Below are positions 2,545-54,231 of a stretch of 64,000 nt of DNA, piece by piece. Origin of the DNA: Dictyostelium discoideum (taxonomy: Eukaryota); assembly GCA_000004695.1 (NCBI GenBank), contig CM000153.2, positions 3,552,001 to 3,616,000 of the forward strand, in the 5' to 3' direction. The notes beneath the pieces were generated by a model, which saw nothing but the letters and a program-made list of their open reading frames with translations, searched no databases and had not been told where the DNA came from. The position numbers and the translations under genes are program-made. Within the stretch, counting starts at the first letter, position 1; each line of letters starts with the position of its first letter.

Positions 2545-4771
2545 TTAAGTTACAACTCTCATTATACTAACAACGGGTTGATTAAGTACTTTTCTAATTG
2601 GTCCAAAAGCTGAAAAGAAAGAGAAAAACATTGAACAAATGAAAACTATTATAATTAATTGCCAAGGTAAAGTCATTGGAATTGGTAACATTGTAAATAA
2701 TTGTCTTTGAAGGATCATTGTGAAACCAACAGTTGAACCAATAAACATACCCAACATTGAGGAAGCCATAACCAATACGAAAGCTTCATAGACGTAAATT
2801 CTAATCATCCAAGATTTTGGTATTCCCAATGCACATAAAACACCAATTTCTTTAGTTTGTTCTAAAATATTTGAATATACAGAAGACATTAAAGAGAAGA
2901 AAGAGATGGTCATTGCTAAAACTGTAGTAAAACTGAAAAAGTATTGAATGATCACAGAGGCCGTTGCAAAAGGTTTAATCTTTTCATAGTAATCCAACAT
3001 ATCGAAATCCTCTCTAAGATTACCAATTAAAAAGCTATTTAAACGATTCTTTATTGATTCTACAGCATCTTTATCATCAGTATTCAATTTCAAAATCACT
3101 TGATTCATTGGAATTTCACGTACTGATGAGAAGATACTACTTGCATACGAGAGATAAGTTGGAAATGATACGATTGAATCTTGATTTGTAACTGATGGGA
3201 ATTTAGAGAATTTAAAAGATGGTGCGCTATCTAACATTGCCGATGGTTTAACTAAGTGTCTAGTGGAATTAACTGATGAAGCTTCACCAGATTTAATATT
3301 TAATTGTAATAGGAATGATTGATCAATTGAAGCACCAATAACATCGGTATACAATGAACCAATGATTATCTTTTGACCACTAGTAAATGAATAGATTTGC
3401 TCGGAAAGATATTGAATATCATTCAAACTATAATCAGGATCAGGAGCGATTGAGCTTGCCTTTAAGAATCCAGGTAAAGTAGTAGCGAATAAGTTTGGAG
3501 AAATCGCATACATATTGGTGCCATCACTATAGATATGACCAATGTTTGTAATTTGAGATTGTTGATATTGTTTAGTCATAATTGAGAAAGATGAAGACTC
3601 CCAAGCGTAATCTTCAATCTCTGGTTGATATTGTGAGAGGAATTGATCGATTAACAAAGTTGACTCTGGTTGAAAGAATGGTTCACTACTTTTCACACTT
3701 AGATAACTACCATAGCTTTGTTGAACTTGATAATTCATTGATGCCTGTTGCATAGAGTATGAAACATTGACAAAGATAATGAATGCCAATGAAACTGCAT
3801 ACATGATAGCGGTCTTTCTATTTCTAAGTTTATGAGCTATTAAATTCTTTATAACCAATGATTTGATAGCACGTTTCTCCCAAAAGAAGAATAGATTAAC
3901 TACAGCCCTCTCTAGAATCTGTTCAACATTTAATGCTAAACTAACCAACCCCAATAACATTGCAATCAACAACATGAAGAACATATTTAAAAGTAGTGTC
4001 AAATTGAATGAAAGCAACGACAATGGGAACACATAATAAATTCCAAAGCCAAACACAGACAACAATGAGCCAATCAATGCAACCGATGATGAGAAACTGT
4101 TATCTTCACTACGTTCAATTGAGATTTGTACAGCGGCAGTCTTTGAATGTTTCACATCTAAAGAGTCATGTAAATTCTTACCCAATGCATTACGAATTGG
4201 AAAGATTGCCGACGCTATTGGAATTATAATACCCAATGCCGATGCTAACAATATGGCTTCACCTGTTAATTTTGGTGGAATTGGTACGCCAGTAATTGAT
4301 TTGAAAATAGCAGAAACAATGAATCCAAATACTTGAGCAATTAATAAACCTAAACCCCAAGATGGTACACTATAGGAGAATGCTTTGAATAGCATCAATT
4401 GAATAATACCATTTCTTGTTGTACCAATCATTCTCATTACACCCATTTCAAAGGTTCTAGTCTCTACATCAATCATCAACAATGAATAAATCAATAGAAT
4501 CGATAAAAACAATAGAATGAATATGATTACATTCAAAATCAAACCTAAAAATAATGCTACATATCTATTCTTTGAAAGTTCACTCATCACTGGTAATTCT
4601 GATGAAAGTTCATTAAATCCAACTTTATATAAAATTTTATTTGAAAAATCTACAATCTTTTCTAAAATTACATCTTGATTTGAATTAATATATGGTGTTA
4701 ATCTTGATGGTGGTAAATTTATAATAACTTGTTTTGAATAATCATAAAAATTAATTTTTGAAATATAACTT

Positions 4772-4810
<39 letters not shown>

Positions 4811-5996
4811 AAAAATTAATATATATATATATAATTTTTCCCCGATTTTTTTTTAAAAAAAAAAAAAAACAATATTAAATAAACTTACTTTTTTGAATTA
4901 TAATTCATTTCTGGATCAAATTGTGTAATTAAAAATGGTAAAAATGTTGAATATTCAATGATTATGGAAGAACTTTGATCGGATGGGAACTTACCTTCAG
5001 AAGAAGAGAAAGTATCAGCAACAGTTGCTGTTGCATAAATTACGGGTATGGTTGAAGAGGTGATATTGGCATGAGTCCAAATTGATGATAGAAATGATCT
5101 AGTTGGAATACGAATGAATATTGTATCACCCTTTGAAATTGATAATTTATTTGCTAAATTCTCTTGAACGTAAACTGTACCCTGTGGTGGAGCATCCAAT
5201 TTCCAATCACGACCTAATCCCATCCTCTTTTCACGTGCAGTATCAATCACAAACATCGATGCTTTACTTGCTACTGAATTACTACAAACTGATTCGAAAC
5301 AGTATGGTTCACATTGATTTGGCTCATCATGATATTTCCAAAGATTATCATTTGGATTTGTGTTACCGTTTGGACACGACTTTGCACTAACCACACTAAC
5401 AGTCCCATCGACTCTTGGTGAATGGTAACTATCATCTACTTCTTCTAATTCATATTGATTATTATTATTATTATCATCAAAATAACTTCCATTTGGTTCT
5501 TTATATGTACCAGCTAATAACTCTGATAACATTGTATAATTTAATTGATCTGATAATGTCCATGAACCAGGTGTCAACACCATATCCATTTCACCAACAC
5601 TTGCTTCTGACAAACTTAGGAATACCACTGGTGTGTTGGTGATGATGGAAACACATAGTGACACTATAAACACTACCAAGAAGCATGCGGAAAATCCTAA
5701 CAAATAGGATAACTTATTACGTAGATTGATTCTTAATGTATGTGAAAAGAAATGTTTCCAATGGTAGAGTAATGTTCTAAACCAATTCACTATCTTCACT
5801 TTTACTGTATCACCATTTATTGCATTTGATATACCCTTGAATTTACCATAAGGTTTACTTGATATTTTCTTCTTAATTTTACCATTGTCATCATAATTAT
5901 CTTTATTTTTTAAAAATGTTTGTTCTTCTGAATTTTCTATAAATTCATCAAAACTATCGCTACTACTACTACTACCATTACTTTTATTTATTTTTA

Positions 5997-7920: not shown

Positions 7921-10900
7921 TTAATCTTTTAAAACTGTTATGATTGATTGTTTTAATAAATGTCTAATTGGAGAAATTACAGAAATGATTGAGACAATTA
8001 AAGATGAAATAAAGAGTATAGGAATTAATTCCCATTGAATTGAAAATGGTATAATTTGTTGATCCATCATTGATTGTTTTAATAGAATAATATAGCTAAT
8101 GAAAAGACCAATAATAATACCAATTATACAACTACCAAATGAAAGTGTAAAAGCTTCGATAATATAGATTTTATAGATTTTAAAATTTGATAAACCAATT
8201 GATCTTAGAATACCAATTTCTTTTGATTGATTTTTAATACTTGTAAACATTGATGAAATTAATGAAAATGATGATATTATTATAGAGATTACTGTTGCGA
8301 AATCAAACAATAATGAATTTAATTTATCTGAACTGTTTGATGAATCTTTATATCTAATTATATATGGACTTTCAGAGTTTTTATTAAATAAACAATTTTT
8401 TGAAATTTTATATTGTAAAGAATCGATTTTATCGTCATCTAATGATTTTGGTTTAATTAAAATTAAATTAACTGGTATATTCCTAACTGAATCAATATTA
8501 CCACCTGATAATCCGACATATGCTGGAAAAGAAGTAATTACACTTTGAGTAAGATCTTCATCCGGAATTTCAGATACACTAAATGTACCTGCAGTTTTTA
8601 AATATGCTAATGGTTTCACTATATTTCTACCCATCCAGTTGAATGTTACATTATGTTTTTGACTTCGACCTGATGAATAATCTATTCTTCTATAGTTATT
8701 AATTTCAATATAATTTGATAATATAAATTCATCTGGTCCACCTTTTTCATCAAGATACATTAATTTCTTTTGAGATTGAGTTAATATTAATTTATTCATT
8801 GAATCTTTGCTATATAAAATCGTTGATAAATCAGTCATATCACCATTTTGATTAAAATCAACATCTTTATCAGTTTTTAAATTTTTTGAAACTGATGAAA
8901 CTTGAAAATAATCTTCCATTATTTCACTGAAATAAGTTGGGCCAACTGCATGTAATGATGATTTTAATGTTACACTTCTAGCAAAATCAGAAACATATGA
9001 TTTCTTATCATCGGGTTGAGAAAATTCACTAAATTTCATTGATCTTAATGAATAACTATCTAATTCATCATTATTTTCATCATCTAATATACGATCTAAA
9101 CATAGAGTTATATTTGATAAATCTTCTCTGGTGATAAAGGAACCAGTTTCAATCTTTAAAAGTGAACCAAACGATTGTTTCTCATTAGCATTTGCAGTTT
9201 CAACTTGAATTAAATATAAACAATTAATTATAATTATTAAAGATACTGAAACACCAAACATAAACATTGTACTTTTATTCTTTTTCTTGTGAGAAATTAA
9301 ATTTTTATATAAAATTATTCTGATTATATTTTTTGCAAAAGGATCTATTAAAGTAATAATGTAAACTAATGTTTTTGAAATGATTAAATGGAAATTCATC
9401 ATTAAGAAAATTGCTGATATTAAAACTAAAATTAACAATCCAAATAATAATGCTAATAATGAACTAAAATTACCAGATAATAATAATTTTGGTAATAAAA
9501 TACAACCAACTATACCTAAAGCGCTTAATGACAAACCAATCCATGATAAATACTTTCTATATTCTGAATCAGTTGAATCTTTATCAATTGTTGTAATTTG
9601 ATGTGATGATGATATATTTGATCTACTAGTATCCAATTGCTCACCTAATGAAAAACTTAATGCTTTTCTAATTGGTAATATCAATGATACCATTGGTATT
9701 AGAAAACCAAGTAAAATTGAATAAACAATTGAATCTACTGTTAAATAATTTGAAATTTCATCTGAATTTGTAAAACGTTTTAATTGATCTATAATTATAA
9801 ATAAAAAGATTTGAGAAATTATTAAACCTAATATAATTGATGGGACTGTGAATATTATTGTTTTTGAAACTATTAGCTCGATGATGAAACTAAATTTAGC
9901 ACCTAACATTCTAAATACACCGTTATTAAATGTCATTGAATCCACATCAATCATTAATGTTGTATAAATTAAAAGAATTGATAATAAAAGGAATACAAAA
10001 ACTATTAAATTTAATAATTGACCTAAATTACTTGAAACTTCGTTACTCTTGTATAATTCAGTCATTATTGGTGTTGAAATATCAACTCTACCAACACCAA
10101 TTTTGTAAACTAATTTCGAGGCAACTTTATTTACTCTTTGTAAAGTTTTATCTAAATCTGTACCATAATACATTGGCAATCTGGGGGATGGAAATTTCAT
10201 AACTATATTTTCAACATATTCTTTTATATTTTTATTTTTCATTAAATCTACATTCCATGTTGGATTTACTTGTTCAACCATTGAATCATAGAATGAGTCA
10301 ATATCTATTAAAACTGATGGTATTATCTCACCCAATTCGAAACCTAGTTCAAATGGATTCTCTGTATTATTGAAAAATCCATTAACTTTTAATTTTGTTA
10401 TTATATATGGTGATTTTTCAATTTGAGTTGTTGAAATCATTGAATCTGTTAATAATGTTGATAATAATCTAACTGCTGGTACTATTATAAAAATTTCATC
10501 ACCAACATTTGCATGGATTGATTGAGCAAGTGATTCTATAATTAAACATGTTCCTTTTGGTTGTGATCCATAACCAAATGTTGATTTTATACCCATATCA
10601 TTCTCTTTTTTAAAATCTAGTAATTGGAAACCCATAAATACATGATTTCCTTCACCACTACATCTATTAATAAAACAAGTGCTCTCTGTGCAATTTAAAC
10701 CACTCCCATTTGAAAAGTATCTTGATTCAATATTATCTTGTACAACTTTTTCACAATAACTTACTGGATATCCATATGTATCTATAAAATTAAATCTTGG
10801 TGAATTATTTTTAAAAAAACTATTTTTATTACTAATACCACTACCACTATATAATCCATGGGTATTCTTTTCATCAGCTCCAACTCTATTATCATCTTTT

Positions 10901-11643
10901 ATTTCTCTAGTTGTATCATTTAAAATTTGATCAAATAATGTATAATTTAATCTTATAGTAAAACCTTTTTCTAAATCTATTGAAAGTTGTTGTTTTCCTG
11001 ATATTATTAAATCTATATGATTAGCATCAGAATCTGCTTTACTTAAAAATATTAATGATATATTTGATAATACTGATAAACCAGTTGCAACTAAAATTAC
11101 TACTAAAAAACATGATATAAAACCAATACTATAATTCAATTTACTCCTTTTAATACCATTTATTGAATATTTAATTATTGAAAACCATTCTCCAATAGTT
11201 GTATTAAATCCAATATTTGTTAAATTTATTTGAATCTTTTTTAAAATAAATCCAAAATATTTTAAAAATTCTAAACTTCCAAAAATTAATATTATAAAAA
11301 ATTCCAAAAAAACAAAAATTCCTTCAATTATTATTTTAAGTTTATTGAAAAAATAATTCTCTTTTTTAATATTATTATTATTATTATTATTTATATTATC
11401 ATCATAATAATAAATATTGTCACCTTGACAATCATTTTCAAGTGATCCTTTTAAAATTGATAATTCAATTGGGTCACATTCACCAACACTCTCTCTCCAT
11501 TTATTATAAAATTTTTTATTAATTAAAATTGGATCATTCTCATTCCTATTATTTATAGAACTCTTTAAAATTGAACTATTTTCATTGATGATACTATAAT
11601 CACCATCATCATTATCATTCCCACTTGATTCATAATTATACAT
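7921..11643 (-). CDS. MacB/FtsX-type double-permease-like membrane protein, paralog A; 1240 aa, apparently a single exon.
   Basis: A full-length ORF. The first module, GIKRSKLNYSIGFISCFLVVILVATGLSVLSNISLIFLSKADSDANHIDLI, follows the MacB TM1 pattern (R.K..L..LGI.IGVA.V....G......S.I.S.G.N.I.I). It is followed by a ~400 aa Cys-containing extracytoplasmic domain and the FtsX core LLIYTTLMIDVDSMTFNNGVFRMLGAKFSFIIELIVSKTIIFTVPSIILGLIISQIF. The second module has a TM, a large domain and NQSKEIGILRSIGLSNFKIYKIYIIEAFTLSFGSCIIGIIIGLFISY. Confidence 0.8.
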   Translation of the reverse strand: MYNYESSGNDNDDGDYSIINENSSILKSSINNRNENDPILINKKFYNKWRESVGECDPIELSILKGSLENDCQGDNIYYYDDNINNNNNNNIKKENYFFNKLKIIIEGIFVFLEFFIILIFGSLEFLKYFGFILKKIQINLTNIGFNTTIGEWFSIIKYSINGIKRSKLNYSIGFISCFLVVILVATGLSVLSNISLIFLSKADSDANHIDLIISGKQQLSIDLEKGFTIRLNYTLFDQILNDTTREIKDDNRVGADEKNTHGLYSGSGISNKNSFFKNNSPRFNFIDTYGYPVSYCEKVVQDNIESRYFSNGSGLNCTESTCFINRCSGEGNHVFMGFQLLDFKKENDMGIKSTFGYGSQPKGTCLIIESLAQSIHANVGDEIFIIVPAVRLLSTLLTDSMISTTQIEKSPYIITKLKVNGFFNNTENPFELGFELGEIIPSVLIDIDSFYDSMVEQVNPTWNVDLMKNKNIKEYVENIVMKFPSPRLPMYYGTDLDKTLQRVNKVASKLVYKIGVGRVDISTPIMTELYKSNEVSSNLGQLLNLIVFVFLLLSILLIYTTLMIDVDSMTFNNGVFRMLGAKFSFIIELIVSKTIIFTVPSIILGLIISQIFLFIIIDQLKRFTNSDEISNYLTVDSIVYSILLGFLIPMVSLILPIRKALSFSLGEQLDTSRSNISSSHQITTIDKDSTDSEYRKYLSWIGLSLSALGIVGCILLPKLLLSGNFSSLLALLFGLLILVLISAIFLMMNFHLIISKTLVYIITLIDPFAKNIIRIILYKNLISHKKKNKSTMFMFGVSVSLIIIINCLYLIQVETANANEKQSFGSLLKIETGSFITREDLSNITLCLDRILDDENNDELDSYSLRSMKFSEFSQPDDKKSYVSDFARSVTLKSSLHAVGPTYFSEIMEDYFQVSSVSKNLKTDKDVDFNQNGDMTDLSTILYSKDSMNKLILTQSQKKLMYLDEKGGPDEFILSNYIEINNYRRIDYSSGRSQKHNVTFNWMGRNIVKPLAYLKTAGTFSVSEIPDEDLTQSVITSFPAYVGLSGGNIDSVRNIPVNLILIKPKSLDDDKIDSLQYKISKNCLFNKNSESPYIIRYKDSSNSSDKLNSLLFDFATVISIIISSFSLISSMFTSIKNQSKEIGILRSIGLSNFKIYKIYIIEAFTLSFGSCIIGIIIGLFISYIILLKQSMMDQQIIPFSIQWELIPILFISSLIVSIISVISPIRHLLKQSIITVLKD

Positions 11644-12750: not shown

Positions 12751-15700
12751 TTAATCTTTTAAAACTGTAATAATTGGTTGTTTTAATAAATGTCTAATTG
12801 GAGAAAATACAGAAATGATTGAGACAATTAAAGATGAAATGAAGAGTATAGGAATTAATTCCCATTGAATTGAAAATGGTATAATTTGTTGATTCATAAC
12901 TGATTGTTCCAATAGAATTGTATAGCTAATGAAAAGACCAATAATAATACCAATTATACAACTACCAAATGAAAGTGTAAAAGCTTCGATAATATAGATT
13001 TTATAGATTTTAAAATTTGATAAACCAATTGATCTTAGAATACCAATTTCTTTTGATTGATTTTTAATACTTGTAAACATTGATGAAATTAATGAAAATG
13101 ATGATATAATCATTGAGAGTACAGTTGCAAAATCAAAGAATAATGAATTTAATTTATCTGAACTATTTGATGAATCTTTATATCTAATTATATATGGACT
13201 TTCAGAGTTTTTATTAAATAAACAAGTTTCTGAAATTTTATATTGTAATGAATCAATTAAATCGTCATCTAATGATTTTGGTTTTAATAAAATTACGCTA
13301 ACTGGTATATTCCTAACTGAATCAATATTACCACCTGATAATCCGACATATGCTGGAAAAGAAGTAATTACACTTTGAGTAAGATCTTCATCCGGAATTT
13401 CAGATACACTAAATGTACCTGCAGTTTTTAAATATGCTAATGGTTTCATTACATTTCGACCAATCCAATTGAAGGTTACATTTTGTTGTTGATTTTTACC
13501 AGATGGATCAATTTTTGTATAATTATTAATTTCAATATAATTTGATAAAAGAAATTCATCTGGACCACCTTTTTCATCAAGATACATTAATTTCTTTTGA
13601 GATTGAGTTAATATTAATTTATTCATTGAATCTTTACTATATAAAATCGTTGATAAATCAGTCATATCACCATTTTGATTAAAATCAACATCTTTATCAG
13701 TTTTTAAATTTTTTGAAACTGATGAAACTTGAAAATAATCTTCCATTAATTCACTGAAATAAGTTGGACCAACTGCCCATAGTGATGATTTTAAAGTTTT
13801 AGTTTTAGCAAGATCAGAAACAATTGATTTCTTATCAGGTTGAGAAAATTCACTAAATTCCATTGACCTTAATGAATAACTATCCAAACCATTATTTTCA
13901 TCATCGATTATTCGATCTAAACATTGAGTTATATTTGATAAATCTTCCCTTTTTATAAAGGTACTGGTTTCAATCTTTAAAAGTGAACCAAAGTATTGTT
14001 TATTTGAAGCATTTGAAATTTCAACTTGAACTAAAAATAAACAATTAATTATAATTATTAAAGATACTGAAACACCAAACATAAACATTGTACTTTTATT
14101 CTTTTTCTTGTGAGAAATTAAATTTTTATATAAAATTATTCTAATAATATTTTTTGCAAAAGGATCTATTAAAGTAATAAGGTAAACTAATGTTTTTGAA
14201 ATGATTAAATGGAAATTCATCATTAAGAAAATTGCTGATATTAAAACTAAAATTAACAATCCAAATAATAATGCTAATAATGAACTAAAATTACCAGATA
14301 ATAATAATTTTGGTAATAAAAAACAACCAACTATACCTAAGGCGCTTAATGATAAACCAATCAATGATACAAACTTTCTATATTCTGAATCAGTTGAATC
14401 TTTATCAATTGTTGTAATTTGATGTGATGATGATATATTTGATCTACTAGTATCCAATTGCTCACCTAATGAAAAACTTAATGCTTTTCTAATTGGTAAT
14501 ATCAATGATACCATTGGTATTAGAAAACCAAGTAAAATTGAATAAACAATTGAATCTACTGTTAAATAATTTGAAATTTCATCTGAATTTGTAAAACGTT
14601 TTAATTGATCTATAATTATAAATAAAAAGATTTGAGAAATTATTAAACCTAATATAATTGATGGGACTGTGAATATTATTGTTTTTGAAACTATTAGCTC
14701 GATGATGAAACTAAATTTAGCACCTAACATTCTAAATACACCGTTATTAAATGTCATTGAATCCACATCAATCATTAATGTTGTATAAATTAAAAGAATT
14801 GATAATAAAAGGAATACAAAAACTATTAAATTTAATAATTGACCTAAATTACTTGAAACTTCGTTACTCTTGTATAATTCAGTCATTACTGGTGTTGAAA
14901 TATCAACTCTACCAACACCAATTTTGTAAATTAATTTTGAAGTAAATTCACTAACTCTTTGTAAAGTTTTATCTAAATCTGTACCATAATACATTGATAA
15001 TCTTGGTGATGGAAATTTCATAACTATATATTCGACATATTCTTTAATATTTCTATTTTTCATTAAATCTACATTCCATGATGGATTTACTTGTTCAACC
15101 ATTGAATCATAGAATGAGTCAATATCTATTAATATCGATGGTATTGTTTCACCCAATTCGAAACCTAGTTCATATGGATTCTCTGTATTATTGAAAAATC
15201 CATTAACTTTTAATTTTGTTATTATATATGGTGATTTTTCAATTTGAGTTGTTGAAATCATTGAATCTGTTAATAATGTTGATAATAATTCCACTGCTGG
15301 TACTATTATAAAAATTTCATCACCAATCTTTAATTCTGTTGCTTTAGCCAATAATTCTACCATTAAACATGTACCCTTTGGTTGTGATCCATAACCAAAT
15401 GTTGATTTTATACCCATATCATTCTCTTTTTTAAAATCTAGTAATTGGAAACCCATATATACATGTTCTCCATCACCACCGCATCTATTAATAAAACAAG
15501 TACTCTCTGTGCAATTTAAATCACTACCATTTGAAAAGTACCTTGCTTCAATATTATTTTCAACAATGTTTTCACAATAATTTACGGGATATCCATATGT
15601 ATCTATCATATGAAATCTTGGTGAATTATTTTTAAAATTTTTTTTTTTACTTCCACCACTACTTGAACTCTGGATTATAGTTTCACTAGCTCCAGCACTA

Positions 15701-16383
15701 TTTTCACCTTTTATTTCTATATTCTCTATTTTTTCAAAATTTAAAATTGCATTATTTAAAATTTTATCAAATAATGTATAATTTAATCTTATAGTAAAAC
15801 CTTTATCTAAATCTATTGACTGATGTTGTTTTCCTGATATTATTAAATCTATATGATTAGCATCAGAATCTGCTTTACTTAAAAATATTAATGATATATT
15901 TGATAATACTGATAAACCAGTTGCAACTAAAATTACTACTAAAAAACATGATATAAAACCAATACTATAATTTAATTTACTCCTTTTAATACCATTTATT
16001 GAATATTTAATTATTGAAAACCATTCTTCAATAATTGTATTAAATCCAATATTTTTTAAATTTATTTTAATTTTTTTTAAAATTAATCCAAAAAATTTAA
16101 ATTCTTTTTTTAAAAATTCCAAAGCTCCAATAATTATTGAGGTTAATAATTTAAAAAAATATAAAATTCCTTTGATTATTATTTTAAATTTATTATTTTT
16201 TTTAAAATGATAATCGTTACTGTCACAATCTTCATCAAATGATGTTAAAATTGCATAATTTTTAGTGATGGAATTATCGTCATCATCTCCATCCTCATCT
16301 TCATTACAGTTGTCATTTTCACTTGGTCCATAAAAATTATGCATTTCTATTCTTTTTTTTATTTTAAAATTATTGGTTAGCAT
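12751..16383 (-). CDS. MacB/FtsX-type double-permease-like membrane protein, paralog B; 1210 aa. Its N-terminal ~90 residues are unrelated to those of A and C.
   Basis: Very high identity to 7921-11643 and 17277-21032 across most of its length, with identical stretches such as KSPYIITKLKVNGFFNNTENP and LLIYTTLMIDVDSMTFNNGVFRMLGAKFSF. The N-terminus MLTNNFKIKKRIEMHNFYGPSEND... is different, and the first M could be preceded by a missed 5' exon. Confidence 0.8.
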   Translation of the reverse strand: MLTNNFKIKKRIEMHNFYGPSENDNCNEDEDGDDDDNSITKNYAILTSFDEDCDSNDYHFKKNNKFKIIIKGILYFFKLLTSIIIGALEFLKKEFKFFGLILKKIKINLKNIGFNTIIEEWFSIIKYSINGIKRSKLNYSIGFISCFLVVILVATGLSVLSNISLIFLSKADSDANHIDLIISGKQHQSIDLDKGFTIRLNYTLFDKILNNAILNFEKIENIEIKGENSAGASETIIQSSSSGGSKKKNFKNNSPRFHMIDTYGYPVNYCENIVENNIEARYFSNGSDLNCTESTCFINRCGGDGEHVYMGFQLLDFKKENDMGIKSTFGYGSQPKGTCLMVELLAKATELKIGDEIFIIVPAVELLSTLLTDSMISTTQIEKSPYIITKLKVNGFFNNTENPYELGFELGETIPSILIDIDSFYDSMVEQVNPSWNVDLMKNRNIKEYVEYIVMKFPSPRLSMYYGTDLDKTLQRVSEFTSKLIYKIGVGRVDISTPVMTELYKSNEVSSNLGQLLNLIVFVFLLLSILLIYTTLMIDVDSMTFNNGVFRMLGAKFSFIIELIVSKTIIFTVPSIILGLIISQIFLFIIIDQLKRFTNSDEISNYLTVDSIVYSILLGFLIPMVSLILPIRKALSFSLGEQLDTSRSNISSSHQITTIDKDSTDSEYRKFVSLIGLSLSALGIVGCFLLPKLLLSGNFSSLLALLFGLLILVLISAIFLMMNFHLIISKTLVYLITLIDPFAKNIIRIILYKNLISHKKKNKSTMFMFGVSVSLIIIINCLFLVQVEISNASNKQYFGSLLKIETSTFIKREDLSNITQCLDRIIDDENNGLDSYSLRSMEFSEFSQPDKKSIVSDLAKTKTLKSSLWAVGPTYFSELMEDYFQVSSVSKNLKTDKDVDFNQNGDMTDLSTILYSKDSMNKLILTQSQKKLMYLDEKGGPDEFLLSNYIEINNYTKIDPSGKNQQQNVTFNWIGRNVMKPLAYLKTAGTFSVSEIPDEDLTQSVITSFPAYVGLSGGNIDSVRNIPVSVILLKPKSLDDDLIDSLQYKISETCLFNKNSESPYIIRYKDSSNSSDKLNSLFFDFATVLSMIISSFSLISSMFTSIKNQSKEIGILRSIGLSNFKIYKIYIIEAFTLSFGSCIIGIIIGLFISYTILLEQSVMNQQIIPFSIQWELIPILFISSLIVSIISVFSPIRHLLKQPIITVLKD

Positions 16384-17276: not shown

Positions 17277-20200
17277 TTAATCTTTTAAAACTGTAATAAT
17301 TGGTTTCTTTAATAAATGTCTAATTGGGGAAACTACAGAAATGATTGAGACAATTAAAGATGAAATGAAGAGTATAGGAATTAATTCCCATTGAATTGAA
17401 AATGGTATAATTTGTTGATTCATAACTGATTGTTCTAATAGAATTGTATAGCTAATGAAAAGACCAATAATAATACCAATTATACAACTACCAAATGAAA
17501 GTGTAAAAGCTTCAAAAATATAGATTTTATAGATTTTAAAATTTGATAGACCAATTGATCTTAGAATACCAATTTCTTTTGATTGATTTTTAATATTTGT
17601 AAACATTGATGAAATTAATGAAAATGATGATATAATCATTGAGAGTACTGTTGCAAAATCAAAGAATAATGAATTTAATTTATCTGAACTGTTTGATGAA
17701 TCTTTATATCTAATTATATAAGGACCTGTTGATTTTAGATTAGATAAACATTTTTGACTAATTTTTAATCTTAATGAATCAATTAAATCATAATCTAATG
17801 ATTTTGGTTTAATTAAAATTACACTAACTGGTATATTCCTAACCGAGTCGATATTACCACCTGATAACCCAACATATGCTGGAAATGAGGCTATTACACT
17901 TTGAGTTGCACCTTTATCTGGAATCTCAGATACACTAAATGTACCTGCAGTTTTTAAATATGCTAATGGTTTCATTAAATAACGACCCATCCAATTTAAT
18001 GTTACATTTTGTTGTTGATTTTTGCCAGATGGATCAATTTTTGTATAATTATTAATTTCAATATAATTTGATAATAAATATTCATCACTACCACCTTCTT
18101 GATCAAGATACAATAATTTCTTTTGAGATTGAGTTAATATTAATTTATTCATTGAATCTTTACTATATAAAATCGTTGATAAATCAGTCATATCACCATT
18201 TTGATTAAAATCAACATCTTTATCAGTTTTTAAATTTTCTGAAACTGATGAAACTTGAAAATAATCTTCCATTAATTCACTGAAATAAGTTGGACCAACT
18301 GCAAATAATGATGATTTTAAAATTCTAGTTCTACCAAGATCAGAAACCGTTGATTTCTTATTATCAGGTTGAGAAAACTCACTAAACTCCATTGATCTTA
18401 ATGAATAACTATCTAAACCATTATTATCATCCATTAAACCATCTAAACATTGGGTAATATGTGATAAATCTTCTCTAAGTAAAAATGTTTCTGTTTCAAT
18501 CTTTAAAAGTGAACCATAGTATTGTTTTCTAGAAGCATTTGCAGTTTCAACTTGAACTAAATATAAACAACTAATTGTAATAATTAAAGATACAGAAATA
18601 CCAAACATAAACATTGTACCTTTATTCTTTTTCTTGTGAGAAATTAAATTTTTATATAAAATTCTTCTAATAATATATTTTGCACCAGGATCGATTAAAG
18701 TAATAAGGTAAACTAATGTTTTTGAAATGATTAAATGGAAATTCATCATTAAGAAAATTGCTGATATTAAAACTAAAATTAACAATCCAAATAATAATGC
18801 TAATAATGAACTGACATCACCGGATAATAATAATTTTGGTAATAAAAAACATACCACTATACCAAAAGCACTAATTGATAAACCAATCAATGATACAGAC
18901 TTTTTAAATTCTGCATCTTTTGAACCTTTATCAATTGTTGTAATTTGATGTGATGATATTTTTGATCTACTAGTATCCAATTGTTGATTTAATGAAAAAC
19001 TTAATGCTTTTCTAATTGGTAATATCAATGATACCATTGGTATTAGAAAACCAAACAAAATTGAAAATAGAATTGAATTTACTGTTAAATACTTTGAAAT
19101 ATCTGCTGAATTTGATATACTCTTTAATTGATCTACGACTATAACTAAAAAGATTTGTGAAATTATTAAACCTAATATAATTGATGGTATTGTGAAAATT
19201 ATTGTTTTTGAAACTATTAGCTCGATGATGAAACTAAATTTAGCACCTAACATTCTAAATACACCGTTATTAAATGTCATTGAATCCACATCAATCATTA
19301 ATGTTGTATAAATTAAAAGAATTGATAATAAAAGGAATACAAAAACTATAATATTTAATAATTGACCTAAATTATTTGAAACATCTTTGCTCTTGTATAA
19401 TTCAGTCATTACTGGTGTTGAAATATCAACTCTACCAACACCAATTTTGTAAATTAATTTTGAGCAATAATCACCCACACGTTGTAAAGTTTTATCTAAA
19501 TCTGTACCATAATACATTGATAATCTTGGTGATGGAAATTTCATAACTATATATTCGACATATTCTTTTAAATTTCTATTTTTCATTAAATCTACATTCC
19601 ATGTTGGATTTACTTGTTCAACCATTGAATCATAGAATGAGTCAATATCAATTAATATAGATGGTATTGTTTCACCCAATTCAAAACCTAATTCATAACC
19701 TAATTCGTATGGATTCTCTGTATTATTGAAAAATCCATTAACTTTTAATTTTGTTATTATATATGGTGATTTTTCAATTTGAGTTGTTGAAATCATTGAA
19801 TCTGTTAATAAAGTTGATAATAATTTAACTGCTGGTACTTTTAAAAAAATTTCATCACCAATCTTTAATTCTATTCTTTTAGCCAATGATTCTATCATTA
19901 AACATGTACCCTTTGGTTGTGATCCATAACCAAATGTTGATTTTATACCCATATCATTCTCTTTTTTAAAATCTAGTAATTGGAAACCCATATATACATG
20001 TTCTCCATCACCACCACATCTATTAATAAAACAAGTACTCTCTGTGCAATTTAAATCACTACCATTTGAAAAGTACCTTGCTTCAATATTATTTTCAACA
20101 ATGTTTTCACAATAATTTACGGGATATCCAAATGCATCTATCATATGAAATCTTGGTGAATTATAATCAAAATTATTAAAACCACTACTATCACCACCAA

Positions 20201-20685
20201 TAAATAAACTATTGAAACTATTAGCTTCATTCAATTCTATTAATTTTTCAAAATTTAAAGTTGCATCATTTAAAAGTTGATCAATTAATGTATAATTTAA
20301 TCTGACATCAATAATTTCACCTAAATCTATTGATTGTTGTTTGCCTGATATTATTAAATCAATACCATAGGCATCAGAATCTGCTTTACTTAAAAATATT
20401 AATGATATATTTGATAATACTGATAAACCAGTTGCAACTAAAATTACTACTAAAAAACATGATATAAAACCAATACTATAATTCAATTTACTCCTTTTAA
20501 TACCATTTATTGAATATTTAATTATTGAAAACCATTCTTCAGTAATTTTAAAAAATCCAATATTTCTTAAAATTAATTTAATCTTTTTTAAAATTATTTT
20601 AATCCTTTTTAAAATTGATTTAAAAAATTCTAAAATTATTATTATTATTTTTATTATTATTATTTTAAATTTTTTTATATATAAA

Positions 20686-20716
<31 letters not shown>

Positions 20717-21032
20717 CATCTTCATCATTATTATTATTATTATTATCATTTGATGATTTTTTAAAATCTGATAATTCAACTTGACTATATTCACCAACAC
20801 TATCTCTCCAATTATTATAATATTTTTTGTCACTAATTAAAATTGTATCATTTTCATTATTTTCACTCCTTTTCATTGCACTTGTTAATATTGAATTATT
20901 ATTGTTGAGGTTGTTTTTATCCTCATCGTCATCATCGTCGTTATTATTATTGTTATTGTTTTCTTCATAATTATTTACACTATCTTCATTATCGTTAGCA
21001 CTTATTCCAAAATAATTATCATTTTGAACCAT
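17277..21032 (-). CDS. MacB/FtsX-type double-permease-like membrane protein, paralog C; 1251 aa.
   Basis: A full-length ORF with the same architecture and high identity to A and B. The N-terminal acidic, Asn-rich cytosolic region shares KKYYNNWRDSVGE with paralog A (KKFYNKWRESVGE). Confidence 0.8.
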
Positions 21033-22611: not shown

Positions 22612-22648
<37 letters not shown>

Positions 22649-22724
22649 GATTATTATTTTTACCCTCTTTATCAAAGTGTTCCAAACCAAATTTTAATAT
22701 TTCATATGATTCATTATTTGACAT
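22096..22724 (-). CDS. Borealin-like protein, a candidate chromosomal passenger complex subunit (Nbl1/Borealin N-terminal domain); about 172 aa. Exons about 22724-22661 and 22526-22096, with a gtaaaa...tttag intron about 22660-22527.
   Basis: The ORF-track entry 22096..22488 is extended upstream in frame to the acceptor at 22527-22528. A 64-nt first exon, ATG TCA AAT AAT GAA TCA TAT GAA ATA TTA AAA TTT GGT TTG GAA CAC TTT GAT AAA GAG G|gtaaaa, joins in phase (G|TT). The product MSNNESYEILKFGLEHFDKEVETHIESLRNESKMLSELLKKNLQSELLNLPNSIRKMSMEEFLQ... aligns with human Borealin [51 protein letters not shown]. Confidence 0.6.
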
Positions 22725-22954: not shown

Positions 22955-22962
22955 TCCCACAA
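22955..22962 (+). promoter_or_regulatory. DUSE-like box (tCCCACAA) about 77 nt upstream of the candidate Class I RNA.
   Basis: gtaaTCCCACAAaacaa matches the Dictyostelium upstream sequence element consensus [A/T]CCCA[C/T]AA recalled from the ncRNA literature. Confidence 0.4.
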
Positions 22963-23038
22963 AACAATTTTAATTAAAAGAAAGTTAATTTAAAATTTTT
23001 TTTATTGATATATTAAAATGTGATAAATCACAATAAAA

Positions 23039-23091
23039 GTTGACCTCACAGCAATTAACTAGTTTTAAAGAAACCCCCTTGTCAACTGTAC
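23039..23091 (+). ncRNA. Candidate Class I non-coding RNA, about 50 nt.
   Basis: GTTGAC-CTCACAGCAA-ttaactagttttaaagaaaccccctt-GTCAAC-tgtac followed by a T15 run. The 5' GTTGAC and 3' GTCAAC are perfectly complementary, forming a terminal stem. Immediately 3' of the 5' stem arm, CCTCACAGCAA differs at one position from the conserved Class I 11-nt motif CCTTACAGCAA. The length lies within the 42-65 nt range. The locus is intergenic and GC-elevated. Confidence 0.45.
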
Positions 23092-23374
23092 TTTTTTTTT
23101 TTTTTTTTAATAAATAAAATTAAGAATCCTGGAAATCCAAAAAAAAAAAAAAAAAGAAAAAAAAATAATAATAATAAGCAAAAAAAACAAATAAAATAAT
23201 ATTTTTAAATTTAATTATAAATTTTATTAAAATGTTTGATTTTTAAGGTTGTAAATTTATAAACCCATTGGTGTAATTTGATAATCAAATTGTTTTTTTT
23301 TGATGATCAAACAAAACTATATCTAAAAGTACTTGGTAAATTATTAATTTGTTAATTGTTTGATGGTATTTTGT

Positions 23375-25439: not shown

Positions 25440-29748
<4,309 letters not shown>

Positions 29749-45959: not shown

Positions 45960-48552
45960 TAATAACATTAATATAAATAATAATAATGATAGTAATAATA
46001 ATAACTCAAACCTTGAAAGTCCTTATTTTTTTTCAAAAAATGTTGATTTTACTTCCGAAATACCTGATTTTCTATCAAAAAAGTAAGTAAATTATTATTA
46101 TTATTTTTTTTTTAAAAAAAATATATATATATCTAAATATTTTTATTTTTATTATTATTATTATTATTATTAATATTATTATAGAGCTGTTAAAATAGTA
46201 ACAAATATTTTAAATTGTTCAGATATTGAATATATAAAAGAAGATATATGGTCATTACATTTATTAAAAATAAAACATTATTTAAGAATGCATTCAGTAT
46301 TTCAAAGATTATTTGAAAATATTGAAAATTCAACGAAAATGTTTGCGACAGATGAATCAAAAAAGAAAGAAGAGCTTCTTGAAGAAATAATGGATTATTT
46401 ATTTAGTAAAGATGAATTTAAAAATGATTTAGTCAATTGTTATTTTTATTCAATTGTAAATTATGATCTTGCTGGAAAGAATAAAATGGTGATTAAAATC
46501 TTTGAAAAAGTAATGAAAAAACAAAATTACAAAAAAAAGGATTTTATTACAAATGAAACCATAAAAGTTTTATTAGAATTTCGTCGTATTGATTTAGCTA
46601 TAAAAGTTTATAGATCTCGTTTTACTGAATTCGATATTGGTATAAACATGGATACCGTACTAGTATTCACAAATTATTTCGAAAAAAAACTAAAATATAA
46701 ATGGGCAAAAGTTTGGGGAAACCAAGATAGAGTAAAATATGAAGAGACCTATAATAAGAGATTAAATAAAAAAACAATTCGACCAATTAGAACTGACGCT
46801 TACCCAAGATTAGAAACGATCTATAAAGAGATTTATAGTTTCATTAATAATGAACTACCATCAACTATACCATGTGAACAACCGAATCCATTAAAAGGAC
46901 CAGACACTGATAGATATAGTGAAGAATATAAACAAGCTCAAAAAGAATTGAATATTAGTCTATTAAGAATTGATGCATTTGGTATTGTTAAAGTATTAGA
47001 CAGTTACTTTTTTAAATATGATCAGATTCCACACTTCAATACATTATTTATTTCATTTCAAGTCGTTAGTGACCATTATGGTGTTTATTGGATTGAACAA
47101 TTTAGAAATATGCCAAAATATATTTTTGATATTGTAAATTTTGGTAATGATGATAATCCACAATACCAACAAAAAAAAGAAAAACGACAACTAGAACGAC
47201 AACAACTAGAAGAACAACAACAACAAGAACAACAAGAACAACAAGAACAACAAGAACAACAAGAACCAAATGAACAAAATAATGAACAACAAATTCAAGA
47301 AAAAGAAAAAGAAAAAGAACAAGAAAAAGAAGAATTTTTAAATAATGAATTGGTACCAAATGAAAATGAATTGTTAGAAATTTTTAAAAAATTATTATCT
47401 CAACCAAAATTTGAATATCCAATTAGATTATTTAAAATGGTATCAGATTTGAAAATAGAGGTGAAATTTACAGATATGATAATTCATCAATTCTTGGGTT
47501 ATTTGAGATTTTATTATAATCAAATTAATCAACCAAGTTTAATTGAAGATTTATTTGAAAATCTTCAATATTATTCAACTACAGTTGGATATAATAATTT
47601 ATTATTAAATCATTTATTTGAAAATTTGAGAGCCATTGAAACCTCTGAAGAATATGAATCAACTTTGGATAGTTTATTAGATTTTTATTATAAAATTCCA
47701 AGAAAGGATTATGCTACCTTTGATATAATCTTGAGAATAGTTAATTTTAAAAATAGCATCTCACCTCATAGAACAAGTGCAGCCAAATTATACGGTAAAT
47801 TATTAATCAATGCTTCACTCTCGAATCAAACTGTTTTATTAAATAATAGAATCGTAAATTATCTAGTCGATTTCGTGCACGGAAACTTTGTTGAAGCTTT
47901 TATTGCTCAAGATCCAAACGTATGGAGAGATCTAGATACAGATATTGTCATTAAATATTTTAATCGTCTTCGTAGAACTGGTAAATTACAAAAAGTCTTG
48001 GAAAAGTTTAAGGAAAGAGAAATTTATTGCCCCTTTGTTGATCCAGAGTTATTCAATCTCATCTCTCATGCAAATAGAAATATTAAAGATCCTATAGTTT
48101 CAAATCTCTTATATATTCATTCTAAAAAGAATGCTGCCTTCTTTAAAAATAAACCTCAAGAAACAGTTCAACATAATGAAAAACATGATGATACAGTCCA
48201 ACAAGAAGAAGAAAAAGAAGATGATACAATTCAACATAAACAAACACATGATGATACAGTTCAACATAAAGAAAAAGATGATGATAAAGTTCAAGATGTT
48301 GATGATGATGATGTCATATTTGAATATGAAGATGATGATGCAATTCAATATGAAGAAGAAAAAGAAGAAGGTGATGATGCACTTCAATATGAAGAATATG
48401 AAACAAATCAATATAAAGGTGAAATTTTCTTTGAAAATCCTCTCGATCAATATCTTTATCAAAAAAATAGAGAACCATTTACACCTTCACAAATTGAAAC
48501 TTTAGAAAAAATTTTATCAATTAAAGATTATAACCCAGGTTCAAAACTTTAA
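45715..48552 (+). CDS. Hypothetical protein of about 840 aa with an N-terminal mitochondrial-presequence-like region, an internal (QQE)n/EKE low-complexity block and an acidic C-terminal repeat. Exons about 45715-46082 and 46185-48552.
   Basis: ORFs 45715..46086 and 46288..48552 are joined by an intron with a GTAAGT donor at 46083 and an atag acceptor at 46181-46184, in phase 2 (AA|A). The junction gives ...DFLSKK AVKIVTNILNCSDIEYIKEDIWSLHLLKIKHYLRMHSVFQRLF... Confidence 0.5.
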
Positions 48553-53126: not shown

Positions 53127-54231
53127 ATGATTAAATCAAGTGATCCATTAATTCCACCATTTAGATTTGCAATAGTTGAAGAAGGGTTATTAAGGGGATC
53201 ATATCCAACAGATAGAAATTTTCGATTTTTAAAGAGACTAAAGTTAAAGACGATTGTATCATTAACACCAAAGCCACCAACTAAATCATTTTATACATTT
53301 TGTGAAAGATATAATACCACCACGAAACATTTTACAGTTAGCAAATTTAAAGATGATGTGACATTATCAGCAGCACAAGTAGCACAATTATTGGAAATGA
53401 TGATCGAACCTAACAATTTACCAATGTATATTCATTGTTTAGATGGTGCAAATGTAACAGGTACAATATTTATGTGTTTAAGAAAACTTCAAAACTGGAA
53501 TCTTTCATCAATATTTCAAGAATTCACAAGATTCACTAGAGGTGGTACAATCGCATCTTCGGAGGCTGAATTTGTTGAAACTTTCAAGGCTGAAATCGAT
53601 GTTTGTCCACATATTCCACCTTGGTTATGGCAAGGTATTAGAATGGTTAAACATCCAACTTTAAAATTAAGATTAGTAGGTGGTGATCAACAACCTGCAC
53701 TTTTAGCTTTAAATAATAATTCCTCCTCTTCAACAACAAATCCCAATGCAACATCTACTATAACTAATCCTTCATCAATAAGTACATCATCTTTGCCAAG
53801 TTCTTCAACGAATACCCCAAATAGATCAACTGTTGATGATACTGGTAATTTATTACAAAAACTAATAGAATTAAATTTAAATAATCAAAATAGTAATGAA
53901 AGTGGTATGCAGCTTGAAAATAACGATGATAATAATAATAGTGATAATAATAATTATAATAATAATAGTAATAATAATAATAGTAATAATAATAATAGTA
54001 ATAATAATAGTGATACAATCGATTATAAAAATTTAAATAAACCATTAAAAATTAGTTCAGAAGAAAGCGAAAAAGAAAAGAATACAAATGAGTCATTCTC
54101 TTCAACAATATATACGGTATCATCAACTACAATAATTAATAATAACGATAATAATAAAAATATTGATAATAATGATGGTAATAATAGTAATGATAATGAT
54201 AATGATAATAGTAATAATAATAATAATAATG

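Follow-up and report, generated by a model that had tools for sequence, protein, structure and literature searches.

The plus strand of positions 22955-23108 in the window, that is, the whole 64,000-nucleotide stretch of Dictyostelium discoideum DNA analysed here, carries the gene for DdR-34 (r34), a D. discoideum Class I small non-coding RNA, and we hold this identification to be nearly certain. DdR-34 is one of about 40 paralogous Class I RNAs in this organism. The earliest description of the class is reportedly that of Aspegren et al. 2004 (NAR 32:4646).

Identity and expression of the DdR-34 gene

The family and its promoter were defined by Kjellin et al. 2021 (Genome Res 31:436; PMC7919456), whose curated FASTA file gives DdR-34 as GTTGACCTCACAGCAATTAACTAGTTTTAAAGAAACCCCCTTGTCAACTG. 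Comparison with this file revealed that window positions 23039-23088 are identical to the catalogued RNA over all 50 nucleotides (50/50). Supplementary Table S3 of the same work places r34/DdR-34 at DDB0232431:3575037-3575088 (+) on chromosome 4 of strain AX4, with a length of 50, a CM score of 45.1 (the cut-off applied by the authors was 25), a classifier score of 62.6, and a read coverage of 1. The promoter entries of the table are a DUSE TCCCACAA at a distance of 75, a TGTG box AAATGTG at a distance of 15, and an inter_dist of 60 (PMC7919456); both distances, 75 and 15, are recovered if the start coordinate of the table corresponds to window position 23037, in the conserved AA. The 50-nt sequence, the DUSE, the TGTG box, the distances, the strand, and the genome are thus the same as in the published DdR-34 of AX4, and nothing differs: it is the same locus.

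The covariance model RF01414 (Dicty_Class_I_RNA) of Rfam matches 23039-23088 (+) over its entire length (model positions 1-56 of 56) with a score of 42.3 bits and an E-value of 1e-4, calculated over both strands and 4227 families. The match exceeds the gathering score of 41.5 by just 0.8 bits and is the sole gathering-level match within the 64 kb. An initial annotation had recognised the architecture of a Class I RNA gene at this site and suggested covariance-model and small-RNA comparisons; with a score above the gathering threshold and full identity to the RNA-seq-validated DdR-34, the candidate of that annotation is an established gene. The locus is not new: it is named, catalogued, represented in Rfam, and validated by expression. 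A full-text literature search for 'DdR-34' returned no mention in any main text.

Published read counts for DdR-34 are 37,396 and 38,320 at 0 h, 47,637 and 61,549 at 4 h, and 46,241 and 52,185 at 8 h (PMC7919456), so that the RNA is expressed in growing and developing cells at the level of tens of thousands of reads. These counts are raw, and no inference on developmental regulation is drawn from them. The read-coverage flag is 1 (validated) and no northern entry is given (PMC7919456). As computed from the published counts, DdR-34 accounts for about 0.6-0.9% of Class I reads, ranks 20 of 31, and is about 22-35-fold less abundant than DdR-21. It is unlikely that the reads originate from a paralogue, since the DdR-34 sequence is found in no other D. 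discoideum member.

The locus is intergenic and is flanked by a Borealin-N-like gene (-) and a gene of the CfaA_B_C family (+). An (ATT)n microsatellite occupies 22613-22662, within or beside the Borealin-N-like gene. Three tandem paralogues of an FtsX-domain (PF02687) membrane protein of about 1200 aa are encoded at 7921-11643, 12751-16383, and 17277-21032, all on the minus strand, and a fourth, distant relative (about 29% identity) at 2557-5841 (-). The copy at 12751-16383 corresponds to the AX4 protein DDB_G0285667, with 1197 of 1197 residues matching at 16344-12754 (-) and 92-97% identity in wild isolates; this full identity marks the window as the AX4 reference, in keeping with chromosome 4. 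An exact-protein look-up for the 1109-aa ORF at 26419-29748 matched no record, probably owing to introns or to a differing gene model. The FtsX array is conserved in related genomes, with some copies split in some assemblies.

When the whole window was scanned with permissive Rfam settings, no second Class I gene emerged; the additional matches were all sub-threshold and snoRNA- or miRNA-like, and we regard them as chance. Among these are two box C/D snoRNA-like matches, snoR28 at 48295-48345 (+), with 26.4 bits and E=1.5, and SNORD43 at 53737-53795 (-), with 21.1 bits and E=7.5; both fall inside long ORFs and are probably due to chance. No tRNA genes were found in the window.

Layout of the gene and its terminal stem

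All elements of the gene lie on the plus strand. The Dictyostelium upstream sequence element (DUSE), a putative promoter element, reads TCCCACAA at 22955-22962, exactly as in Table S3, and is invariant in 5 orthologous genomes. An AT-rich spacer of 53 nt (22963-23015) separates it from the TGTG box AAATGTG (23016-23022), which also agrees with Table S3, is invariant in the orthologues, and was overlooked by the initial annotation. The distance from the end of the DUSE to the end of the TGTG box is exactly 60 nt, and the gaps before G23039 are 16 nt from the TGTG box and 76 nt from the DUSE. A DUSE match about 77 nt upstream of the RNA had thus been correctly noted; the accompanying expectation of about 60 nt between the DUSE and the RNA start does not hold for the RNA start itself, 76 nt away, but does hold for the TGTG box. 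Class I expression requires the DUSE at the correct distance, about 60 nt upstream of the start or, in Group 4 species, of a TGTG box; in D. discoideum Class I genes the 60 nt run to the TGTG box and not to the mature 5' end (PMC7919456). The DUSE distance had seemed too long because the TGTG box had been overlooked, and the promoter architecture of DdR-34 is canonical rather than deviant.

The segment between the TGTG box and the RNA, ATAAATCACAATAAAA (23023-23038), is a possible 5' leader and ends in the conserved AA (23037-23038) ahead of G23039. Features of the Class I family include an AA before an invariant G, a transcribed CUGU 3' end, and near-universal motif positions 3, 6, 9, 10, and 11 (PMC7919456); the start of DdR-34 conforms to the first of them. 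Mature DdR-34, as delimited by RF01414, sequence identity, and RNA-seq, spans 23039-23089 and has 51 nt with the terminal U of CUGU (the catalogued 50 nt being 23039-23088). This region reads GTTGAC-CTCACAGCAA-[26-nt loop]-GTCAAC-TGT, followed by AC and then T17. With 39% GC, compared to 13% and 16% in the flanks, it is the GC-raised segment of about 50 nt that had been pointed out in the AT-rich surroundings, and both its length and its composition are inside the Class I ranges of about 42-65 nt (median about 60) and 32-41% GC (PMC7919456).

The 5' arm of the terminal stem, GUUGAC (23039-23044), starts with the invariant G, and the 3' arm, GUCAAC, is located at 23081-23086; both are supported by the sequence and by family covariation. 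The 11-nt motif CCTCACAGCAA at 23044-23054 differs from the consensus CCTTACAGCAA by one mismatch, as in the entry for DdR-34 in the authors' file. The initial annotation was right about the single mismatch and misplaced the motif by setting it immediately after the 5' arm: the two overlap by one base, C23044, which is both the last base of the arm and the first C of the motif. The change affects motif position 4 and leaves the T, C, C, A, and A of positions 3, 6, 9, 10, and 11 intact. [quoted passage not shown] 2021 (PMC7919456).

The variable loop (23055-23080) has accumulated substitutions and indels among orthologues, with its ends fixed. The conserved 3' end CTGT (CUGU), at 23086-23089, is a family feature, is invariant in orthologues, and its C pairs with the 5' G. 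A T run begins 2 nt past CTGT, at the same offset in 5 genomes, and is likely a Pol III-type terminator; it extends over 23092-23108 and thus comprises 17 residues, not the 15 counted earlier. The mature RNA most likely ends at 23089, at the CUGU, rather than at 23091 as initially proposed.

The complementarity reported for GTTGAC and GTCAAC was reproduced, with canonical Watson-Crick pairing at 6 of 6 positions. In single-sequence folding, this stem is not part of the minimum free energy (MFE) structure; it lies 1.2 kcal/mol above it and has a pairing probability of about 0.29. The alternative MFE fold pairs GUUG with CAGC and the loop with the 3' arm, and the same alternative is shown for DdR-34 in the authors' fold file (PMC7919456). 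Isolated DdR-34 folds no better than shuffled sequences (z = -0.28). The probability of the terminal stem is 0.36 for wild-strain D. discoideum and 0.94 and 0.99 for the D. cf. discoideum and D. citrinum orthologues, respectively. Covariation was counted across the Class I family on ends-only constructs of 15 distinct stem/motif types: 93.3% of stem cells were paired, compared to 72.3% in shuffles, with the observed value reached in 0 of 500, and 15 double-sided stem changes were found versus 3.4 in shuffles. Controls with a slid register gave 11-44% pairing. The terminal stem is a constraint at the level of the family, although it is thermodynamically marginal in DdR-34. The folding result was not taken as a refutation, since every member of the family has a weak stem of this kind and the proper test is covariation across the family.

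Syntenic orthologues and a decayed copy

The syntenic region was taken from six other assemblies via orthologues of the flanking FtsX-domain genes. A Class I gene was found at the same place and in the same orientation in five of the six, with scores of 42-50 bits. The D. discoideum assembly GCA_054883475.1 (L004) is identical to AX4 over 205 nt, two wild D. discoideum (L003 and L005) differ from AX4 at two RNA positions, and the RNAs of D. cf. discoideum (L002) and D. citrinum (L001) are 54 and 59 nt long, respectively. Invariant in the orthologues are AATCCCACAAAA, AAATGTG, the 60-nt spacing, ATCACAAT-AAAAG, the stem arms, ACAGCAA, and CTGT(A/G)CTTTTTT. The motif and the stem, whose loss in relatives would have spoken against the initial annotation, are retained at the syntenic site in five genomes.

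The 60-nt spacing between the DUSE and the TGTG box is the same in AX4, the two wild D. discoideum, D. cf. discoideum, and D. citrinum, whereas the gap from the TGTG box to the first G drifts among orthologues and is 15, 16, or 20 nt. In each of the 5 genomes, two nucleotides separate CTGT from a run of at least six T residues. Downstream of the TGTG box and ahead of the mature 5' end, ATCACAATAAAAG has hardly changed between AX4 and D. citrinum and is better conserved than the DUSE-TGTG spacer. Judging from this pattern, the stretch could be a leader, a processing signal, or core promoter sequence.

AX4 and L004 carry substitutions at 23047 and 23060 (RNA positions 9 and 22), which change the motif from CCTTACAGCAA to CCTCACAGCAA (T-to-C) and the loop from CAAG to CTAG. 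Since wild D. discoideum, D. cf. discoideum, and D. citrinum differ from AX4 at both sites, the comparison indicates that both substitutions are derived. The one mismatch mentioned in the initial annotation is accordingly a derived change of the AX4 lineage, because T occupies motif position 4 in all genomes not of the AX4 type. No other D. discoideum Class I RNA shares the C of DdR-34 at this position.

The sixth assembly, D. cf. discoideum GCA_054859235.1 (L006), gave no Class I match even at E-values up to 10. In its syntenic spacer, a recognisable remnant of the DdR-34 orthologue is located at L006:3400-3555 (-). The promoter of this remnant has a 3-nt deletion in the DUSE, a 25-nt deletion in the spacer, and AAACGTG in place of AAATGTG; in the RNA part, the AAAAG start and the 5' arm are lost, the motif reads CCTTATAGTAA, and the 3' arm reads ATCAAG. 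From these lesions, the copy is identified as a lineage-specific pseudogene. Its loss suggests that DdR-34 is individually dispensable, and it is consistent with rapid turnover of Class I genes and redundancy among the approximately 40 paralogues; rapid turnover has been noted in the literature for D. firmibasis. Elsewhere in the L006 region, an (ATT)n-type tract of about 180 nt falls on the opposite strand when the collinear alignment is taken as reference, and is not necessarily homologous to the microsatellite at 22613-22662.

[quoted passage not shown]

Alternative readings, biogenesis and proposed function

In an AT-rich genome, short motifs may meet by chance where there is no RNA gene, and taken singly the elements of this locus are indeed at or below expectation. 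The expectation for an 11-mer with up to one mismatch is 0.54 occurrences per 64-kb window, the DUSE octamer was found 5 times versus 9.5 expected, and 49 runs of at least 15 T residues are present in the window; neither the 11-mer nor the DUSE alone rises above chance, and single-motif enrichment tests are uninformative in a window of this composition. The fold z-score of -0.28 points the same way. The combination, however, is far beyond chance: the composite CCCAYAA-N(51-55)-AAATGTG occurs once in the window and in 0 of 100 shuffles, and the covariance-model E-value is 1e-4. A relaxed regular-expression search of the window for other DUSE+TGTG or stem+motif candidates returned, besides the DdR-34 locus, one spurious match in a coding region at 4311 (-), and the remaining four DUSE octamers fall in sequence that looks coding and are followed by nothing RNA-like. 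Together with exact identity to a catalogued, expressed RNA and cross-species synteny with conserved ends and a variable loop, this leaves chance co-occurrence a vanishingly small probability; the conservation in orthologues and the RNA-seq coverage in the literature already rule it out. That the AX4 locus is a silent or decaying Class I pseudogene, with the motif change and the poorly predicted stem as signs of decay, is also very improbable. It would fit the two derived AX4 substitutions relative to wild strains, one of them within the conserved motif, the low predicted occupancy of the terminal stem, the plainly decayed state of the L006 orthologue, and the fact that several D. discoideum members with good CM scores are unexpressed (PMC7919456). 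Nevertheless, each library contains 37,396-61,549 DdR-34 reads with validated coverage, and the DUSE and the TGTG box are intact at the canonical spacing, a trait that separates expressed from silent loci (PMC7919456). Motif position 4 is outside the five near-universal positions and is also C in DfiR-5 and DpuR-29/30, and the wild-strain sequence is likewise low in stem probability (0.36), so that the low value does not come mainly from the AX4 changes.

For an expressed DdR-34 gene, the question is where transcription starts. The TGTG box may serve as a second promoter element or mark where a precursor transcript begins, and the authors leave both options (PMC7919456). If it were a proximal promoter element, transcription would start directly at G23039 without a 5' leader. 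D. discoideum Class I RNAs begin at the G in RNA-seq (PMC7919456), and conservation extends to the sequence immediately preceding the G, which one would expect of a core promoter; to such a direct start we assign an appreciable probability that stays clearly short of even. Where studied, though, the DUSE lies about 60 nt from the transcription start, and in DdR-35 and DdR-36, which are without a TGTG box, it is 58-60 nt from the mature start (PMC7919456). Moreover, an element that positions the start should keep a fixed distance to it, while the distance from the box to the G ranges from 10 to 29 nt across the Class I family (PMC7919456) and from 15 to 20 nt among the orthologues. Initiation at the TGTG box followed by removal of a 5' leader is favoured with modest confidence, because the DUSE-to-box distance is fixed at 60 nt while the box-to-G distance varies. 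A broader proposal stands just below an even chance in our estimate: that the DdR-34 locus, through its fixed 60 nt, its drifting TGTG-to-G distance, and the conserved ATCACAATAAAAG, supports a start at the TGTG box and a processed leader, and that the T-to-C motif change of AX4 and L004 and the loss in a sister lineage offer natural variants for tests of the motif.

In the mechanism proposed here, DdR-34 would be produced by DUSE-dependent transcription, probably by RNA polymerase III, ending in the T17 run. Polymerase III was suggested by the authors from the T run (PMC7919456), and this suggestion is supported because the position of the run is conserved in five genomes. With a start at the TGTG box, the precursor would carry a leader of 15-20 nt and a U-tail, and trimming of both would yield the mature G...CUGU RNA. 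The ends of the mature RNA may be closed in the 6-bp stem, with the 11-nt motif single-stranded. The spliceosomal snRNA genes, as far as the account of Hinas et al. 2006 in PMC7919456 goes, are similar in having the DUSE about 60 nt from the presumed initiation point; in that account they give RNAs whose structure and function are unlike those of DdR-34, no TGTG box is attributed to them, and the DUSE is common to Pol II and Pol III genes.

DdR-21, the prototype of RF01414, shares with DdR-34 the G start, the 6-bp GUUGAC/GUCAAC stem, the 11-nt motif, the CUG(U) end, the size and GC range, and the DUSE/TGTG-box promoter at 60 nt. Besides its lower abundance, DdR-34 differs in its length (50 versus 55 nt), in the C for T at motif position 4, and in the terminal stem not being the predicted MFE structure. 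In the literature, Class I RNAs are described as abundant and mainly cytoplasmic; DdR-21 is reported to bind Rnp1A (Cibp) directly, and its knockout to perturb early development (Avesson et al. 2011, as cited in PMC7919456). The evidence on localisation, on Rnp1A binding, and on the effect of a knockout concerns DdR-21 alone among these RNAs. An RNP1A CLIP-seq study, in its searched passages, reports 24 mRNA targets, credits ncRNA binding to Avesson et al. 2011, and makes no mention of Class I RNAs or DdR-21. By analogy with DdR-21, DdR-34 may be cytoplasmic and bound by the RRM protein Rnp1A. Action of Class I RNAs by binding Rnp1A or other proteins, or by pairing with mRNAs, is the authors' hypothesis (PMC7919456), and DdR-34 could add, redundantly with its paralogues, to the control of early multicellular development through protein sequestration or mRNA pairing.

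As a discovery, the locus has little weight, DdR-34 being published and its family being in Rfam; it serves as a positive control, in which a lineage-restricted ncRNA gene and its promoter were recognised correctly from raw sequence. Class I RNAs are of interest as abundant, developmentally regulated RNAs restricted to Dictyostelia, and the orthologue series, which covers intact, variant, and decayed states of the gene at a single syntenic position, offers modest material for work on their promoter architecture and gene turnover.
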